Assembly: GCF_000026545.1 (NCBI RefSeq)
Contig: NC_011601.1
Direction: 5' to 3' (one strand)
DNA from: Escherichia coli O127:H6 str. E2348/69
Lineage (GTDB): Bacteria; Pseudomonadota; Gammaproteobacteria; Enterobacterales; Enterobacteriaceae
Length of the DNA: 64,000 nt
Positions 13,644 through 22,501 of this stretch are shown in pieces. The notes below the pieces were generated by a model. The model saw nothing but the letters and a program-made list of their open reading frames with translations. It was not told where the DNA came from and searched no databases. Both the position numbers and the translations under genes were made by a program. Position 1 is the first letter of the stretch, and every line of letters begins with the position of its first letter.

Positions 13644-14501
13644 ATGAAATACATTGGAGCGCACGTTAGTGCTGCTGGCGGTCTGGCAAATGCCGCAATT
13701 CGCGCCGCCGAAATCGACGCAACCGCGTTTGCCTTGTTCACCAAAAACCAACGTCAGTGGCGTGCCGCACCGCTCACGACGCAAACCATCGATGAATTCA
13801 AAGCCGCCTGTGAAAAATATCACTACACATCGGCGCAAATTCTTCCCCACGACAGTTATCTGATTAACCTCGGACATCCGGTTGCTGAAGCTCTGGAAAA
13901 ATCGCGCGATGCCTTTATAGATGAAATGCAGCGTTGCGAACAGCTGGGGCTTTCTTTGCTCAACTTCCACCCTGGCAGCCATCTGATGCAGATTTCAGAA
14001 GAGGATTGCCTTGCGCGTATTGCCGAATCCATCAACATTGCGCTGGATAAAACTCAAGGTGTCACCGCGGTGATTGAAAACACCGCCGGTCAGGGCAGTA
14101 ACTTAGGGTTTAAATTCGAACATCTCGCGGCGATTATCGACGGCGTGGAAGATAAATCCCGCGTCGGCGTCTGCATTGATACCTGCCATGCTTTCGCTGC
14201 CGGGTATGATTTGCGTACTCCTGCCGAATGCGAGAAAACGTTCGCTGATTTTGCCCGTATTGTAGGCTTTAAGTATCTGCGCGGGATGCACCTCAACGAT
14301 GCGAAAAGCACCTTTGGCAGCCGCGTTGACCGTCATCATAGCCTCGGCGAAGGCAATATCGGTCATGATGCGTTCCGCTGGATCATGCAAGACGACCGTT
14401 TCGACGGCATTCCGCTGATCCTTGAAACCATCAACCCGGATATCTGGGCAGAAGAGATCGCCTGGCTGAAAGCGCAACAAACTGAAAAAGCGGTGGCCTG
14501 A
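13644..14501 (+). CDS. nfo: Endonuclease IV (AP endonuclease)
   Basis: 285-aa [42 protein letters not shown]... Recognised as Nfo. Confidence 0.97.
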
Positions 14502-14504
14502 TCG

Positions 14505-15593
14505 ATGAACGACAGGGAAAAGCAGATTCTTAAAATTTTACGGCGTAACCCGCTGATTCAACAGAATGAAATCGCCGATATTCTGCAAATCAGCCGCTCA
14601 CGTGTTGCCGCTCATATTATGGATTTGATGCGCAAGGGTTTGATTAAAGGCAAAGGATATATCCTTACCGAGCAGGATTACTGTGTGGTTGTGGGTGCAA
14701 TCAATATGGATATTCGCGGAATGGCGGATATCCGTTACCCGCAAGCAGCCTCTCATCCAGGTTCTGTTCACTGTTCCGCAGGCGGCGTCGGACGTAATAT
14801 CGCGCATAACCTGGCTCTGCTTGGTCGGGATGTGCATTTAATTTCAGCTATTGGCAACGATTTTTACGGCGAGACATTACTGGAAGAAACGCGCCGCTCG
14901 GGCGTGAACGTTTCAAACTGCATTCGTCTGCATGGACACAGCACTGCAACTTATCTCGCTATCGCTAATAAGCAGGAAGAAACTATCCTGGCAATCAATG
15001 ACACACATATTCTGCAACAGCTAACGCCTCAACTGCTCAATACTTCACGGGACTTGATTCGCCATGCTGGTGTGGTGCTGGCTGATTGTAATCTCACACC
15101 TGAAGCCCTGGAGTGGGTCTTTACCATTGCTGATGAAATTCCGATGTTTGTCGATACCGTTTCCGAATTTAAAGCGAACAAAGTAAAAAACTGGTACAGC
15201 CGGATCCACACTCTGAAACCGACACAAAATGAACTGGAAATTTTGTGGGGGCAACCGATTAAAGACGACAACGATCGTATCAGAGCTGTAAATTCGCTGC
15301 ATCAACAAGGTGTTAAACGCATTTTTGTTTATCTGAAAGATGAATCTGTATTTTGCAGCGATAAGGATGGAGAACAATTTTTGCTGACCGCGCCAGCGCA
15401 TACGACAGTAGACAGTTTTGGTGCTGACGATGGTTTTATGGCGGGCCTGGTATATAGCTTTCTTGAAGGATACAGTTTCCGCGACAGCGCCCGTTTTGCG
15501 ATGGCCTGCGCGGCAATTTCACGCGCCAGCGGCAGCTTAAACAACCCTACCCTGTCTGCCGATAACGCGCTTTCATTAGTGCCAATGGTGTAA
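14505..15593 (+). CDS. yeiI: YeiI, winged-HTH domain fused to a PfkB-family carbohydrate/nucleoside kinase (paralogue of PsuK)
   Basis: 362 aa. Residues 1-55 (MNDREKQILKILRRNPLIQQNEIADILQISRSRVAAHIMDLMRKGLIKGKGYIL) look like a MarR/Lrp-type wHTH. The remainder aligns with PsuK (GGVGRNIAHNLALLG, ADCNL, HTLKP, GADDGFMAG). The ATG is 3 nt after the nfo stop. Confidence 0.92.
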   Translation: MNDREKQILKILRRNPLIQQNEIADILQISRSRVAAHIMDLMRKGLIKGKGYILTEQDYCVVVGAINMDIRGMADIRYPQAASHPGSVHCSAGGVGRNIAHNLALLGRDVHLISAIGNDFYGETLLEETRRSGVNVSNCIRLHGHSTATYLAIANKQEETILAINDTHILQQLTPQLLNTSRDLIRHAGVVLADCNLTPEALEWVFTIADEIPMFVDTVSEFKANKVKNWYSRIHTLKPTQNELEILWGQPIKDDNDRIRAVNSLHQQGVKRIFVYLKDESVFCSDKDGEQFLLTAPAHTTVDSFGADDGFMAGLVYSFLEGYSFRDSARFAMACAAISRASGSLNNPTLSADNALSLVPMV

Positions 15594-15600
15594 CAATGTT

Positions 15601-15634
15601 GCCGGATTCGACGCTTGACCGCATCTTATCCGGC
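15601..15634. repeat. Degenerate REP-like palindrome between convergent yeiI and nupX
   Basis: gccggattcgacgcttgaccgcatcttatccggc has GCCGGAT...ATCCGGC ends and resembles the REP consensus GCCGGATAAGGCGTTTACGCCGCATCCGGC. Confidence 0.6.
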
Positions 15635-15648
15635 TCATAAATTGCGCA

Positions 15649-16899
15649 CTACGCTAAACCAATAAAGAATCCTGCAATAGTAGCACTCATCAGGTTAGAA
15701 AGTGTCGCCGCCGCCAGCGCGCGTAAACCAAGTTGGGCGATTTCCGGCGCACGGTGTGGCGCAACCGCAGAAAACGCCCCCACCACCACCCCGATAGAAC
15801 CAAAGTTAGCGAAACCGCACAACGCGAAAGAAATAATCGCCACGGTTTTAGCATCCAGAGTGCCACCCGTTTGCAGATATGGCGAGAAATTGAGATAAGC
15901 GACAAATTCATTGATCGCCAGCTTCTGCCCAATCAAACTCCCGGCAAGATTTGCATCACTCCAGTCAACCCCCATCACCCACGCCAATGGGGCCAACAGG
16001 TAACCTAAAATCGACTCCAGCGAAGCATGTTCAAAACCAAACCAGCCGCCAACACCGCCGATAATACCGTTAATCAACGCAATTATTGCAACAAATGCCA
16101 TCACCACTGTCGCCACACCTGCGGCGATTTTCAGCCCGGTCATTGCCCCTGTTGCAGCGGCTTCAATAATGCTCTTTGGCGGTGTTTCGGTGAAAGAGAG
16201 GTTATTAAAGGAAACCTGCGAAGATTCCGTAGCCGGGCTTAACAGGCGGGCAAACAAGATCCCACCGGGAATCGCCATTAACGATGCCGCCAGCAGATAT
16301 TCCACAGGCACGCCCAGTGCGGCGTAACCAATCATTGTCGAACCAGCAATCGAGGCCATACCGCTGCAAATCGCTGTAAATAATTCATTGCGATTCAGCC
16401 GATCGATAAAGGGTTTGACGATTGCCGGAATTTCGTTTTGCCCGAGGAAAATGGTAGTGACCGCGACGAATGACTCGATCTTGCTGATATTTAATGCTTT
16501 CTGGAAGATACCGCCGAGAATTCGAATTAAGATCCCCATCACACCGATGTAGTAGAGAATACTCACCAGCGCGGTGACGAAGATAATTGCCGGTAACACC
16601 CTGAAACCAAAGATAAATCCTGCGCCATCAAATAAGGTATCCATTTTCGGTCCGACCAGAGAACCGAAAATAAATGCGCTACCCGCGTCGCTGTACGCCA
16701 TCACTTTATGGACGCCAAAAGCGACTTTTTCTGCGACCCAACGCCCTGGCGGTAACCAAAGCATTATGCCGCCAATCACGACCTGTAACACTAACGCCGC
16801 GCCAACGGTACGCAGGCTGATCTTCTTTTTGTTTACTGACAGCAAAAACGCAATAGCCAGTAATACCACCATTCCCAGAACACTTCTCATGACATCCAT
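15649..16899 (-). CDS. nupX: NupX, NupC-family (CNT) nucleoside transporter
   Basis: 416-aa polytopic ORF. Aligns without gaps to PsuT (18835-20085). Recognised as NupX/YeiJ. Confidence 0.94.
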   Translation of the reverse strand: MDVMRSVLGMVVLLAIAFLLSVNKKKISLRTVGAALVLQVVIGGIMLWLPPGRWVAEKVAFGVHKVMAYSDAGSAFIFGSLVGPKMDTLFDGAGFIFGFRVLPAIIFVTALVSILYYIGVMGILIRILGGIFQKALNISKIESFVAVTTIFLGQNEIPAIVKPFIDRLNRNELFTAICSGMASIAGSTMIGYAALGVPVEYLLAASLMAIPGGILFARLLSPATESSQVSFNNLSFTETPPKSIIEAAATGAMTGLKIAAGVATVVMAFVAIIALINGIIGGVGGWFGFEHASLESILGYLLAPLAWVMGVDWSDANLAGSLIGQKLAINEFVAYLNFSPYLQTGGTLDAKTVAIISFALCGFANFGSIGVVVGAFSAVAPHRAPEIAQLGLRALAAATLSNLMSATIAGFFIGLA

Positions 16900-16998
16900 A
16901 GTTATTATCTCTTCATGTCATTTTGGGCGACGGCTCTCTGCCCATCATAAATAGCCGGGCCTGCATCTTGCGATACTGACCCGGCTTGTTATCAACAC

Positions 16999-17940
16999 TT
17001 AATGGGTTTTTATGTAGCCGCGTACGCACTCTTCGACTAATCCCCAGAACCAGTCGGTATCAATAGTGATGCCGACTTTGGTATTGGCGGGCTTGCCAAG
17101 AACACCCAGCTCGTCGCAGACGGTACGCCCATAGCAAGGGCCACTGTTAACGTCCACTTCGACGTACATTTCCTGGGTTTTAATGCCATCAGGGTTAATC
17201 AAATAACCGATGCAGGTGGCGTCGTGCACCGGGCCGCCAGCCAGGCCGTAGTTTTCGAACTGCGTTTTGAGAGTGAAGTTCATGATGTCGCTGAACAGCT
17301 CTCCGGCAGGGCCGCCAGCCCTTTCCATCCGAGCAATCACATCCGGGGTGCAAACGGTCTGGTTGGTAAGATCGAGGCCCATCATCACTAATGGAACGCC
17401 GGAGGTGAACACCACACGTGCGGCCTCCGGGTCAGCAAAGATGTTGAACTCAGCAGATGGGGTGAAGTTGCCAGTACCATAAGCACCGCCCATCAGAACA
17501 ATTTCACGGATTTTCGGCAGGATCGCGGGTTGCATACGCATTGCCACCGCGATGTTTGACAACGGACCAACCGGCACCAGAGTGATATCGCCATCGCTTG
17601 CCATAAGGGTATCGATGATATATTTCACCGCATGAGTGTTTTCTGCCTGGCGGGTCAGCGGCTCGAATACCGGGCCATCCAGTCCGGTTTCACCGTGAAT
17701 ATTATCGGCAACAATTTGTTGACGCATAATGGGCTGCGGCATCCCCGCATAAACCGGAACATTAATCTCCAGTTTCTGGCAAACATTCAGGCCATTAATT
17801 AATGTTTTATCGAGGGTTTGATTACCCGCTACAATGGTGATACCTAATAAATCAATCGCCGGATGTTTCGCCGCCATCATTATAGCAATAGCATCATCAT
17901 GACCCGGATCACAATCCAGAATAATTTTTCTCTTTTCCAT
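16999..17940 (-). CDS. rihB: RihB, pyrimidine-specific ribonucleoside hydrolase (IU-NH family)
   Basis: 313 aa with the N-terminal aspartate cluster [12 protein letters not shown]. Recognised as RihB/YeiK. It lies upstream of nupX on the same strand with a 99-nt spacer. Confidence 0.95.
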
Positions 17941-18008
17941 TGTTTATTTCCTCTGTTTCCAGTTGCGTTATTGTTTCTACAGCAAAGAAAATTCGATCGG
18001 GCCGATGA

Positions 18009-18022
18009 TTGAATCTTAACAA
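18009..18022 (+). promoter_or_regulatory. FNR/CRP-family-like site upstream of yeiL (TTGAAtcttAACAA)
   Basis: 8 of 10 matches to TTGAT-N4-ATCAA. It is centred about 30 bp upstream of a TATGAG -10-like hexamer (18041-18046). As I recall, yeiL is reported to be FNR-dependent. Confidence 0.45.
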
Positions 18023-18108
18023 CAGCGTACGTATGCTAAATATGAGAAATCTCATAGCGGATAAACATCGTGAAAGAAATCCACAATAATGATCTTAAGC
18101 AGCAATTG

Positions 18109-18768
18109 ATGAGTGAATCTGCGTTTAAGGATTGCTTTTCAACGGATGTTTCAGCCGATACGCGGCTGTTTCATTTTTTAGCGCGTGACTACATTGTGCA
18201 GGAAGGGCAACAGCCGTCCTGGCTGTTTTACCTGACGCGAGGCCGCGCCAGGCTTTACGTCACGCTTGCTAATGGTCGCGTGTCGCTGATCGATTTCTTT
18301 GCCGCGCCCTGTTTTATTGGCGAGATTGAGTTAATCGACAAAGACCATGAACCGCGTGCAGTGCAGGCTATTGAAGAGTGTTGGTGCCTTGCGCTCCCTA
18401 TGAAGCATTACCGCCCGTTGTTATTAAACGACACGCTATTTTTACGAAAACTCTGCGTCACCTTAAGTCATAAAAATTATCGTAATATTGTTTCTTTAAC
18501 TCAGAATCAATCATTTCCGTTAGTGAATCGCCTGGCAGCTTTTATATTACTCTCGCAGGAAGGTGATCTTTATCACGAAAAGCATACGCAAGCGGCAGAG
18601 TATTTAGGCGTCTCTTATCGTCATCTTTTATATGTTCTCGCGCAATTCATTAATGACGGTTTATTAATTAAAAGCAAGAAAGGGTATCTCATTAAAAACA
18701 GAAAGCAGTTGTCAGGACTGGCGCTGGAGATGGACCCGGAGAATAAATTCTCCGGGATGATGCAGTAA
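18109..18768 (+). CDS. yeiL: YeiL, CRP/FNR-family transcriptional regulator
   Basis: cNMP-binding-like beta-roll plus a C-terminal HTH (…[19 protein letters not shown]…). Start placed at ATG 18109 (219 aa). The track ORF starts at GTG 18070. Confidence 0.88.
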
Positions 18769-18788
18769 AAATTATTGGCAATAGTGCG

Positions 18789-18829
18789 ATTGCCGGATGC
18801 AACGCTTAATAAGGTGTACATCCGGCAAT
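18789..18829. repeat. REP-like palindrome between convergent yeiL and psuT
   Basis: attgccggatg...catccggcaat, with 11-bp perfect arms and a REP-like interior (gcaacgcttaataaggtgta). Confidence 0.6.
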
Positions 18830-18834
18830 GAAAC

Positions 18835-20085
18835 TCAAGCTAAACCAATAAAGAACCCGGCAATGGTCGCGCTCATCAGGTTAGAAAGTGTCGCCGCCGC
18901 CAGCGCCCGTAAACCAAGCTGGGCGATTTCCGGCGCACGTTTTGGCGAAATAGCCGAAAACGCCCCAACGACAACACCGATAGAACCAAAGTTAGCAAAA
19001 CCACACAGCGCAAAGGAGATGATCGCCACGGTTTTCACTTCCAGCGTGCCGCCCGTTTGCAGATATGGCGAAAAACTCAGGTAAGCGACAAATTCGTTAA
19101 TCGCCAGTTTCTGCCCAATCAAACTTCCGGCAAGATTTGCATCACTCCAGTCCACCCCCATAATCCATGCCAACGGGGCCAGCACATAGCCGAAAATGCT
19201 TTCCAGAGAGACATTGGCAAAACCAAACCAGCCGCCAACTCCACCAATAATGCCGTTGATCAGCGCAATGATCGCCACAAATGCCATTACCACCGTCGCC
19301 ACACCGGCGGCGATTTTCAGCCCGGTCATTGCACCGTTCGCCGCAGCTTCAATAATGCTTTTTGGCGGTGTTTCGCTAAACGACAGATTTTCAAATGTCA
19401 CCTGCGAAGGCTCGGTGGCTGGGCTAAGAATACGTGCAAACAAAATACCACCAGGGATCGCCATCAGCGATGCCGCTAACAGGTAGTCAATTGGTACGCC
19501 CATTCCGGCATAACCAATCATCATCGAACCGGCAATGGACGCCATCCCGCTACAAATTGCCGTAAATAGCTCGTTGCGATTCATGCGATCGATAAACGGT
19601 TTAACGATCGCCGGGATCTCATTTTGCCCGAGGAAAATAGTGGTAACCGCAACAAAAGATTCGATTTTGCTGATGTTGAGGGCTTTCTGAAAAATACTAC
19701 CAAGAATGCGGATTAGCAGCCCCATCACGCCAATGTAGTACAGCAGGCTGATGAGCGCGGTAACGAAAATAATCGCCGGGAGTACGCGAAAGGCGAAGAT
19801 AAAGCCCGCACCGTCAAACAGAACATCCATTTTGGGACCGACCAGCGAACCAAAAATAAAGGCACTTCCTGCGTCACTGTAGGACATCACTTTATGGACG
19901 CCTAATGCCGCCTGCTCTACTGCCCATTTTCCCGGGGGAAAATAGAGCATGATGCCACCAATGGCAATTTGCAGCAGCAGCGCAGCCCCAACCGTGCGCA
20001 AGCTGATGCTCTTTTTATTTACCGACAACACAAAGGCAATTGCCAGCAATACCACCATCCCCACAACACTTCTCATTATATCCAT
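18835..20085 (-). CDS. psuT: PsuT, NupC-family transporter (putative pseudouridine transporter)
   Basis: 416 aa. By my manual count about 46 substitutions and no indels versus NupX. Last gene of psuK-psuG-psuT. Confidence 0.94.
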   Translation of the reverse strand: MDIMRSVVGMVVLLAIAFVLSVNKKSISLRTVGAALLLQIAIGGIMLYFPPGKWAVEQAALGVHKVMSYSDAGSAFIFGSLVGPKMDVLFDGAGFIFAFRVLPAIIFVTALISLLYYIGVMGLLIRILGSIFQKALNISKIESFVAVTTIFLGQNEIPAIVKPFIDRMNRNELFTAICSGMASIAGSMMIGYAGMGVPIDYLLAASLMAIPGGILFARILSPATEPSQVTFENLSFSETPPKSIIEAAANGAMTGLKIAAGVATVVMAFVAIIALINGIIGGVGGWFGFANVSLESIFGYVLAPLAWIMGVDWSDANLAGSLIGQKLAINEFVAYLSFSPYLQTGGTLEVKTVAIISFALCGFANFGSIGVVVGAFSAISPKRAPEIAQLGLRALAAATLSNLMSATIAGFFIGLA

Positions 20086-20178
20086 AATGATTTTCCCTTC
20101 ATGCCAGTAAACCCGGCGTCAGCGCCAGGTTTTGGTATGTTTGATGAGTACGGGCGACGGCTTTCTGCCCACCAGAAA

Positions 20179-21117
20179 TTAACCCACGAGACGCTGATAT
20201 TCTTTGGCAATTTCGCTCGCCAGAATGGCGTTATTAAAGACCAGTTGAATATTGGATTTCAGGCTATCACCGCCGGTTAGCTCCGCAACACGCGCCAGCA
20301 GGAACGGTGTACTCTCTTTCCCAATAACACCCTGTTCTTCGGCTTCAGCAACGGCTTGATCAATTGCTGCATTGATGGTTTCTTCTGGCATCGCAAACTG
20401 TTCCGGGATCGGGTTCGCTACCACCAGGCCGCCGTTCAAACCGGTTTGCCACTTCACTGCCATCGCGCGAGCAATTTCGCGGGCACTGTCAAGACGAATG
20501 CTGACTTCAAATGGGCTGGTTCGGCAGAAAAACGCAGGCAGCGCTTTTGTCTGATAACCAATTAACGGTACACCGAAGGTTTCTAAATATTCTGTTGTTA
20601 ATCCTAAATCGAGAATAGATTTTGCCCCCGCACAAACAACAGTGACATTGGTATTTGCCAGTTCCTGTAAATCGGCAGAAATATCGAAGGTATGTTCCGC
20701 TCCGCGATGCACACCACCAATACCTCCGGTTGCAAAAACTTTAATCCCAGCCAGTGCTGCAATAATCATGGTTGATGCAACGGTAGTCGCGCCATTTTTC
20801 CCTGCAGCAACGACAAAAGGTAAATCACGACGACTAACTTTCGTCACGTTATGTCCTTCACGGCCCAGCAATTCGATTTCTTCTTTACTTAAGCCCACTT
20901 TCATCACACCGCCAATAATGGCGATAGTGGCTGGTACTGCGCCCTGTTTACGAATTGTTTCTTCTACTTCAATTGCGGTTTGGGCATTTTGTGGGAATGG
21001 CATTCCGTGAGAAATTATGGTCGATTCCAGCGCAACAACCGGTTTTTTATTTTTTAAAGCATCCTGTACTTCAGCGGATATTTGTAATAATTCAGGGGAC
21101 AGAGTTAATTCAGACAT
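20179..21117 (-). CDS. psuG: PsuG, pseudouridine-5'-phosphate glycosidase
   Basis: 312-aa ORF MSELTLSPELLQISAEVQDALKNKKPVVALESTIISHGMPFPQN... Recognised as PsuG/YeiN. Its start overlaps the psuK stop by 13 nt. Confidence 0.95.
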   Translation of the reverse strand: MSELTLSPELLQISAEVQDALKNKKPVVALESTIISHGMPFPQNAQTAIEVEETIRKQGAVPATIAIIGGVMKVGLSKEEIELLGREGHNVTKVSRRDLPFVVAAGKNGATTVASTMIIAALAGIKVFATGGIGGVHRGAEHTFDISADLQELANTNVTVVCAGAKSILDLGLTTEYLETFGVPLIGYQTKALPAFFCRTSPFEVSIRLDSAREIARAMAVKWQTGLNGGLVVANPIPEQFAMPEETINAAIDQAVAEAEEQGVIGKESTPFLLARVAELTGGDSLKSNIQLVFNNAILASEIAKEYQRLVG

Positions 21118-22046
21118 TCTGTGTTCTCCACTAACGATGTAACATTGGCAATTGATAATTCAGGGTTGTTGGTATATTCACAGGCAAGTGCCATTGACGA
21201 ACATCCCTGCGCAAATCGAACAGAATCGATAAACGGCATACCGTCTACCCAACAGGAGGCCAGCCCCGCCATCATGGCGTCGCCTGCCCCAGTAACATTG
21301 ATGACATTCGTTTTAATAGGGGCCGACCACCCACTTTCACCGTTGATATCACTGTAGTAAACGCCATCCCCTCCCATGCTCAGCACCAGGCGGTTCAGGC
21401 CGTGTTGATGAAACCAGGCGGCGACCTTTGCGACATCTTCACGTCCGGAAAGTGCAATTCCGCTCAACGTTTCGGCTTCAAGACGGTTAGGTTTTAACGT
21501 ATGGATTTTGCTCAGATGATCGCGGATTTTGACGCATTTCCATGCCGATACCGGATCAATAAATACAGGCGTTTCCCCGCTATTTTCCAGAACCCAGACC
21601 AGCGCCTCTTCACTAAGGTTGCAATCCGCGACAATAACCTTTGCACCGCGAATAAACTCCTGATGCTGGGCAAGAAATTCTGCAGAAATACAGTCACTAA
21701 TACTCATATCATTTATCGCGACAAGCATTTCTCCTGTATTATCGAGCAGTGATAAATAGCTGGATGTATTCTCACCCGGAACAATTAAGCATTTATCGAC
21801 ATAAACACCGGATTGATTAGTTTGCGCCAGTAATGATTGCCCATAAAAATCACCACCTACTGCACTTAAAAGCCAGGCATTTTTCCCCAGTAACGCCAGA
21901 TTATGAGCGATATTCCTTCCCACGCCACCTGGGGTAAATTTAATTTTTCCGGGATTCGAATCCGCATAATTCAATGGATGATGTGAATACCCAGCCACAT
22001 CAATATTCGCCGAGCCAATAATTACTATGTAGTCCTTTTCGCGCAT
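21105..22046 (-). CDS. psuK: PsuK, pseudouridine kinase (PfkB family)
   Basis: Start placed at ATG 22046 (MREKDYIVIIGSANIDV..., 313 aa). PfkB motifs GGVGRNIAHNLALLG and NVTGAGDAMMAG. The 38 extra N-terminal codons in the track ORF are AT-rich promoter sequence. Confidence 0.93.
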   Translation of the reverse strand: MREKDYIVIIGSANIDVAGYSHHPLNYADSNPGKIKFTPGGVGRNIAHNLALLGKNAWLLSAVGGDFYGQSLLAQTNQSGVYVDKCLIVPGENTSSYLSLLDNTGEMLVAINDMSISDCISAEFLAQHQEFIRGAKVIVADCNLSEEALVWVLENSGETPVFIDPVSAWKCVKIRDHLSKIHTLKPNRLEAETLSGIALSGREDVAKVAAWFHQHGLNRLVLSMGGDGVYYSDINGESGWSAPIKTNVINVTGAGDAMMAGLASCWVDGMPFIDSVRFAQGCSSMALACEYTNNPELSIANVTSLVENTECLN

Positions 22047-22345
22047 AGCACGCCCCCTGGCAATAAATTGCCAACGAAGAAATTGGGTAAAATAGTCATT
22101 ACAGTCAATAAGACTATTAGAGCACGTGTTCAGATTTAAACACATGTTCATAATAAGCATGTTTAACGTAATGTAAATCGATCAGAAAAAACGAAATCGG
22201 CCAGATATGAAGGCGGTCACAAAATTTGTCTATTTATGCAGCAACAAAAGAGAAAGTTGTGATGTGTAACACACAATATGGCAGGCAAGAAAAAGGGCAG
22301 AGATGTTTCTGCCCTCAGATTGTTGACAATGCGCGCTTTGTTCAT

Positions 22346-22443
22346 GCTGGATGTGGCGTAAACGCCTTATCCGACCTACAAAAGCGCAAAAATTCAATAT
22401 ATTGCAGGGTTCATGTAGGTCTGATAAGCATAGCGCATCAGGC
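22346..22443. repeat. BIME: two inverted REP units in the psuK-fruA intergenic region
   Basis: REP 1 is gctggatgtggcgtaaacgccttatccgacctac (22346-22379). REP 2 is in the opposite orientation, gtaggtctgataagcatagcgcatcaggc (22415-22443). Both are close to the canonical REP consensus. Confidence 0.85.
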
Positions 22444-22457
22444 AATTTTGCGTTTGT

Positions 22458-22493
22458 CATCATCGGGGCAGAGATGTCTCAGCCCCGATGATG
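22458..22493 (-). terminator. Strong hairpin immediately downstream of fruA (probable fruBKA terminator)
   Basis: catcatcggggcagaga-tg-tctcagccccgatgatg, a stem of about 16 bp with one A/A mismatch, beginning 9 nt after the fruA stop. The U-tract on the minus strand is weak. Confidence 0.6.
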
Positions 22494-22501
22494 AAGAGAA
22501 A

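Follow-up and report, generated by a model that had tools for sequence, protein, structure and literature searches.

In enterobacteria, paralogues that are dispersed or in tandem are known to undergo deletion and gene conversion, as in the conversion between tufA and tufB in Salmonella, the recombination between rrn operons and rhs-mediated rearrangements. Here we examine a pair of this kind, the transporter genes nupX and psuT, in a window of 64,000 nucleotides (nt) from Escherichia coli O127:H6 str. E2348/69 (assembly GCF_000026545.1, contig NC_011601.1), to which all coordinates refer. For NupX, weak transport of uridine and cytidine has been measured; with PsuT, neither these two nucleosides nor xanthosine were taken up, and it has been assigned to pseudouridine by operon context only. 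Both proteins share a subclade with vcCNT (PMC11241209). That study treats transport function and phylogeny, and we found no paper on recombination at nupX/psuT. We propose that the two genes, being direct repeats, very probably form a substrate for homology-dependent recombination, with deletions arising by in-register crossover and gene conversion acting on the 3′ third. As read from the sequences, exchange between them has taken place in E. coli on no fewer than three independent occasions, each of which left a hybrid transporter.

According to the list of open reading frames (ORFs) and RefSeq, both genes have 416 codons and lie on the minus strand. The left copy of the direct repeat, nupX (15649..16899), closes the rihB-nupX unit, and the right copy, psuT (18835..20085), closes psuK-psuG-psuT. 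The interval lost in the deletions described below holds rihB, for a ribosylpyrimidine nucleosidase (16999..17940, minus strand), and yeiL, for a CRP/FNR-type regulator (18070..18768, plus strand), a homologue of which has the Pfam domains cNMP_binding and HTH_Crp_2. The names follow RefSeq record NZ_CP059840.2, which is 100% identical over 14505-21117 and gives, in order, a yeiI-type sugar kinase, nupX, rihB, yeiL, psuT and psuG. A preliminary description of this DNA had noted that nupX and psuT are co-oriented, with starts 3186 bp apart, high nucleotide identity and long identical runs. Alignment bears this out: the genes are collinear at a fixed offset of exactly 3186 bp with zero indels, and their identity is 80.0% at the nucleotide and 89% at the amino-acid level. 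Their longest identical run is the 35-mer that the same description had placed at 15686-15720 and 18872-18906; it has exactly these two occurrences, with 0 chance matches expected from shuffles. The nupX copy spans nt 1180-1214 of the coding sequence (CDS), while the psuT copy of E2348/69 contains nupX bases at five diagnostic sites (CDS nt 1188-1203). The 34 C-terminal residues (RAPEIAQ...FFIGLA), also singled out earlier, are the same in NupX and PsuT.

Judged by their domains, NupX and PsuT are members of the concentrative nucleoside transporter (CNT) family (NupC/NupG family CNT in RefSeq; ~400-420 aa). Precomputed hits place the CNT Pfam set of Nucleos_tra2_N (PF01773), Gate (PF07670) and Nucleos_tra2_C (PF07662) in a hybrid as well as in K-12-type NupX and PsuT homologues. 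The number of synonymous substitutions per synonymous site (dS) over the whole genes is ~1.2-1.5, as high as for orthologues compared across E. coli and Entomohabitans; by this measure nupX and psuT are old paralogues.

To find deletions in natural strains, we joined the 800 nt to the left of nupX (yeiI side) to the 800 nt to the right of psuT (psuG side) and ran this query on 5,426 complete E. coli genomes. Its two pieces merge if they lie no more than 1300 nt apart, that is, after the predicted deletion alone. The spacing between yeiI and psuG is 1251 bp, not 4437, in exactly two of these genomes, CFSAN004176 and 11PC. The annotation of both reads yeiI, a single CNT gene of 416 aa and psuG; rihB and yeiL are absent. 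A third deletion was a chance find among 40 sampled proteins of the PsuT cluster and belongs to a draft lineage (GCA_004028195.1) in which rihB and yeiL are absent too. Its transporter, WP_128391571.1, combines a PsuT pattern in the N-terminal part with a NupX pattern in the C-terminal part, and is encoded on four contigs, all arranged psuK-psuG-hybrid-yeiI. The CFSAN004176 hybrid protein is found on at least 24 contigs or assemblies in a context identical in all, which shows that the haplotype is truly passed on in a lineage and did not arise through faulty assembly. The preliminary description had predicted a deletion of rihB and yeiL that leaves a nupX/psuT chimera, and had proposed a survey for strains with a single hybrid transporter in place of that interval. 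Such strains do exist, in three lineages: two among the complete genomes and one known from drafts.

We mapped the crossover junctions by fitting two parents to each hybrid from a panel of 22 nupX and 23 psuT alleles taken from intact arrays. Every hybrid follows an extant psuT allele up to one junction and from there, in register, an extant nupX allele together with the nupX downstream flank. The CFSAN004176 hybrid is reproduced with 0 mismatches in 1251 nt and a junction at CDS nt 965-977, equivalent to 15923..15935 in nupX and 19109-19121 in psuT. The 11PC hybrid also shows 0 mismatches in 1251 nt (0 in 1406 nt with both flanks), its junction at CDS nt 1198-1202 (window positions 15698-15702) lying within what is the 35-mer in E2348/69. 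For GCA_004028195.1 there is 1 mismatch in 1251 nt, and the junction at CDS nt 711-740 (16160..16189 in nupX, 19346-19375 in psuT) coincides with a 30-nt identity block of the parental alleles. Fits with one allele fail, the best leaving 48 (CFSAN004176), 6 (11PC) and 85 (GCA_004028195.1) mismatches. Four substitutions just 5′ of the CFSAN004176 junction had been considered repair-associated; this was rejected, as a better psuT parent gives 0 mismatches. In protein terms the NupX part starts around codon 325 in CFSAN004176 and around codon 240 in GCA_004028195.1.

All three junctions fall within the 3′ 43% of the gene, the region of highest identity, and because they lie at different places they point to independent events. 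The length of the deletion equals the repeat spacing and a lone in-register hybrid ORF of 1251 nt is left, as unequal recombination between the copies predicts.

Single-transporter genomes could instead represent an ancestral layout, or a collapse during assembly, so that no deletion would have taken place. Such an arrangement does occur outside E. coli: in Kluyvera (sichuanensis) and Leclercia sp. the order is psuK-psuG-single CNT-yeiI, with the same neighbours as in the E. coli strains that carry the deletion. In addition, 11PC is known from a single assembly. However, the hybrids are mosaics of present-day alleles with 0-1 mismatches, including the stop codon of nupX and its flank with a repetitive extragenic palindromic (REP) element. 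Their three junctions differ, and the haplotypes recur in at least 24 (CFSAN004176) and four (GCA_004028195.1) assemblies. An ancestral absence also fits poorly with the rarity of genomes wholly without rihB-yeiL, which number just 8 of the 5,426. We thus consider an ancestral or artefactual origin extremely improbable.

Recombination between the two copies thus takes two forms. The hybrids show that rare in-register crossovers remove 3186 bp, made up of the 5′ part of nupX, rihB, yeiL and the 3′ part of psuT. The full-length hybrid that remains, psuT in its 5′ part and nupX in its 3′ part, joins the psuKG operon as its third gene, adjoining yeiI. Non-reciprocal exchange, in turn, shown at the evolutionary scale, maintains a higher similarity between the 3′ thirds of one genome than between either of them and its orthologue from a different genus. 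The exchange may be homeologous and run through the RecA/RecBCD or RecF pathway, presumably held back by mismatch repair, since the copies are only 78-88% identical.

The 3′ third of nupX (15649..15998, minus strand, approximately CDS nt 901-1251) evolves in concert with that of psuT (18835-19184), as bootstraps and synonymous differences both indicate. Between nupX and psuT, the proportion of synonymous sites that differ (pS) declines from 0.75-0.85 over the 5′ half to 0.29-0.45 over codons 361-416; in those same codons it is 0.54-0.76 between E. coli and Entomohabitans orthologues. Whether identity is uniform along the pair had been raised beforehand as a check on gene conversion. It is not: the fraction of differing synonymous codons drops from 0.54 in codons 1-200 to 0.33 in codons 341-416 (Fisher p=0.003), whereas orthologues are without trend. 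In neighbour-joining trees, the monophyly of E. coli nupX and psuT receives a bootstrap of 2% for nt 1-600, 100% for nt 901-1248 and 90% for nt 1021-1248. The Entomohabitans nupX/psuT pair is likewise sister in the 3′ part, with 95-98% bootstrap. Divergence in the 3′ segment amounts to 11-19% for E. coli nupX/psuT and 11-12% for the Entomohabitans pair, against ~20-22% between the genera. The 3′ third bears the signature of a concerted evolution that has arisen independently in E. coli and in Entomohabitans.

Similarity at the 3′ end might also be raised, with no gene conversion at all, by purifying selection that acts more strongly on the C-terminal helices or on a nucleotide-level element embedded there. 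The 34 identical terminal residues and the low nonsynonymous divergence (dN) of the 3′ end would agree with it, as would a 35-mer that by itself is not significant. Yet the effect resides in synonymous sites, which diverge freely between orthologues, so protein selection cannot explain it. The orthologues of another genus are not conserved there, as the pS values above indicate, and in two genera the 3′ ends group according to the genome they come from (90-98% bootstrap). Selection without conversion is accordingly very unlikely to account for the pattern.

Gene conversion within the 3′ third is also suggested by differences among strains. At the diagnostic psuT sites of CDS nt 1188-1203, nupX bases occupy five of five positions in E2348/69, three in CFT073 and none in K-12-type strains, and most psuT alleles differ from nupX there. 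In K-12 it is nupX that resembles psuT, at its 3′ end, in its stop codon and over the first ~20 nt of flank. Short conversion patches seem to be polymorphic among E. coli strains, the five sites of the 35-mer and the 3′ end of K-12 nupX being among them. A Sawyer-type run test on a panel of 12 nupX and 13 psuT alleles identifies a 57-nt tract that K-12 nupX has in common with B2-type psuT (global p=0.005).

Several observations weigh against recombination of the two copies as the source of these patterns. The same run test finds no significant tract in the E2348/69 nupX/psuT pair (p=0.11), so the 35-mer alone cannot be called a conversion tract; a run of 35 nt also arises in 7-9% of shuffles (p=0.07-0.09). 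The preliminary description had attributed the identical 3′ tract to gene conversion and suggested a GENECONV-type test. Its attribution is supported for the 3′ third as a whole (90-100% bootstrap for the clustering), but the 35-mer taken by itself is not significant (p ~0.07-0.11). Many of the nupX-like states in B2-type psuT may furthermore reflect a deeply divergent psuKGT haplotype and not conversion. Among the deletions, 11PC is known from one assembly, and its hybrid protein cannot be told from ordinary PsuT, the junction sitting where the NupX and PsuT proteins are identical; the other assemblies with the K-12-type PsuT protein have intact arrays and offer no cross-check. The parental alleles used in the fits are proxies from other strains. 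Finally, a synthetic query for the reciprocal duplication (yeiL flank, psuT 3′ part, nupX 5′ part, rihB flank) was covered in full by none of the 5,426 genomes; the lack of this product weighs little, given that tandem duplications are unstable.

The junctions themselves bear on the enzymatic route. The usually quoted minimum for RecA-dependent exchange in E. coli is ~25 nt. The identity blocks at the junctions measure 30 nt in GCA_004028195.1 (beside a block of 32 nt), 13 nt in CFSAN004176 and 5 nt in 11PC, and the two shorter ones count against a classical exchange and would allow a RecA-independent route. Deletions could then have arisen by template switching during replication or by single-strand annealing between diverged repeats. 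Local identity at the two short-block junctions is 84-88% with the best proxy parents and overall identity is ~78%, a level at which active mismatch repair strongly lowers recombination that depends on RecA. Against such a route stand the 30-nt junction block and its 32-nt neighbour, and the placement of all junctions in register and where the two copies resemble each other most. The spacing of 3.2 kb is also large, and RecA-independent slippage drops steeply with repeat spacing. We regard a RecA-independent origin as a lesser, though appreciable, possibility. In-register junctions in identity blocks of these sizes form a homology-dependent pattern, which does not prove classical RecA exchange; homology-dependent recombination between nupX and psuT remains our preferred reading.

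The extent of the repeat is smaller than first thought. It had been described as 1.3 kb long with both flanks included, yet ungapped identity between nupX and psuT falls to 18-46% just beyond the coding sequences. The REP-like palindromes on the 3′ side and a conserved block on the 5′ side are indeed present; the similarity of the flanks had been overstated and consists of short patches, so that the repeat is a 1251-nt CDS plus patches and is not continuous with full flanks. Right after both stop codons lie GC-rich imperfect palindromes with GCCGGAT and ATCCGGC arms, at 15601..15634 for nupX (GCCGGAT...ATCCGGC) and at 18789..18829 for psuT (20-nt arms, 80% complementary). By their likeness to the REP consensus, they are candidate REP elements. 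Only the distal arm can be aligned between the two downstream palindromes in E2348/69, compared with ~55 nt in K-12-type strains. K-12 possesses an additional 52-nt REP and a psuT-type stop region 3′ of nupX, and psuT segregates in E. coli with a stop codon and REP of either the TGA or the TAA type. Strain 23CRST029, one of two matches at first taken to be missing psuT, was rejected as such: its array is intact, with a divergent psuT and an enterobacterial repetitive intergenic consensus (ERIC)-like insertion of ~130 nt 3′ of that gene.

On the 5′ side, both genes are preceded by a hairpin block of 28 nt. The nupX copy (16925..16952, minus strand; GGGCAGAGAGCCGTCGCCC on the gene strand) matches the psuT copy (20152..20179, minus strand), which lies immediately past the psuG stop codon, at 25 of 28 positions, the two being offset by a 41-nt indel. 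A ribosome-binding block of ~21 nt beside the ATG agrees at 16 of 21 positions, counted by eye on the alignment. Conservation of the leader block extends to six genera, and 9 sequences reveal 3 covarying pairs. Leaders of this kind (16900-16998 and 20086-20178 here, minus strand) precede transporter genes of the nupX/psuT clade in several genera. Their hairpin, (C)GGGCAG..GTCGCCC(G), starts directly after the stop codon of the upstream gene or at most ~50 nt from it. A second leader hairpin, CCTGGCG-N4-CGCCGGGTTT, is missing from E. coli nupX, which corresponds to the 41-nt indel; the conserved ribosome-binding block comes next. An Rfam scan of 15400-20400 at E≤1 gave no match, either to the REP palindromes or to the leader, and pattern scans for promoters and terminators returned counts at the level of shuffles.

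Other variation is also present at the locus. An unrelated internal nupX deletion of the CFT073/ST131 type removes the equivalent of 15690..16827 (1138 bp). Its junction is found in 971 of the 5,426 complete genomes (18%), where it leaves an annotated pseudogene remnant of 66 nt. The left end lies within the 35-mer and, by eye, no obvious microhomology is present. This deletion destroys the direct repeat in the lineages that carry it. In TUM2820, a deletion from nfo to yeiL is accompanied by a copy of the IS5-family element ISKpn26, and psuG has an internal stop; as a repeat-mediated deletion this candidate was rejected, being ISKpn26-associated and unrelated to the repeat. An IS1 copy stands in place of yeiL and part of rihB in GCA_900450115.1. 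Frameshifts affect psuT in MB06234 and rihB in D8, and rihB-yeiL matches occur on 6 plasmid records of the E. coli collection.

Allelic divergence is unevenly distributed over the region. Two islands of extreme divergence, at 14500-15500 (yeiI) and 18750-22500 (psuT-psuG-psuK and the psuK-fruA spacer), bracket the nupX-rihB-yeiL core. Compared with K-12 and O157, E2348/69 is 73-85% identical in yeiI, 75-95% in psuK/G/T and 94-98% in the core. The flank-join query has its best place at an identity of at least 99% in 2049 genomes and of 80-90% in a further 3091; the population seems bimodal, and strain 1008S19 is a recombinant between the haplotypes.

Among the matches listed from other genera, which include no relatives in Escherichia, Shigella or Salmonella, Entomohabitans has the complete E. 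coli-like array. Klebsiella spallanzanii, Dryocola and an Enterobacterales metagenome-assembled genome carry yeiL-rihB-nupX, with psuK, psuG, yeiI, nfo and yeiH not detected in the locus examined. Together with Kluyvera and Leclercia, these genomes show psuKG-CNT and yeiL-rihB-CNT apart from each other, which makes the two modules separable. A psuK-psuG-CNT unit is also present in Pseudomonas lundensis, its transporter 73% identical to NupX, and may indicate horizontal transfer. Two further proposals, taken jointly, appear unlikely to us: that nupX-rihB-yeiL is a cassette lost and gained through exchange of the transporter genes and, separately, that the leader hairpin is an undescribed cis-regulatory or mRNA-processing element. 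The cassette would be compatible with the three deletions, with the separate modules of other genera and with a core that differs by only 2-6% between E. coli lineages, against 10-27% for its flanks (yeiI; psuT-psuG-psuK).

The mechanism considered here, recombination between paralogues, is ordinary; it is newly documented for this locus and is no new mechanism. What the locus offers is a natural, allele-resolved case of recombination between paralogues of ~80% identity, with three in-frame hybrids, mapped junctions and concerted evolution of the 3′ third. It can serve to calibrate the identity needed for homeologous recombination in nature. Annotation would benefit as well, the hybrids being currently labelled as generic CNT transporters, and natural domain swaps between PsuT and NupX lend themselves to studies of CNT specificity.

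Compared with the CNT family (NupC/vcCNT), NupX and PsuT homologues and the hybrids share the same three domains. They differ in that NupX and PsuT are functionally distinct, and the hybrids unite the first ~240 to ~400 codons of PsuT with the remainder of NupX. The palindromes adjoining the two stop codons resemble the REP elements of E. coli in being extragenic and in their arms; here, however, copy number and type vary with the strain, and in E2348/69 they provide little alignable homology. As in the tuf, rrn and rhs systems, co-oriented paralogues supply portable homology, a crossover deletes the interval and leaves a hybrid, and non-reciprocal exchange homogenises the copies. The tuf and rrn copies, however, are more than 98% identical, while nupX and psuT are at ~80%. 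At this identity, events are rare (2 of 5,426 genomes), conversion tracts are short and lie mainly in the 3′ third, and the identity blocks that contain the junctions are very short.

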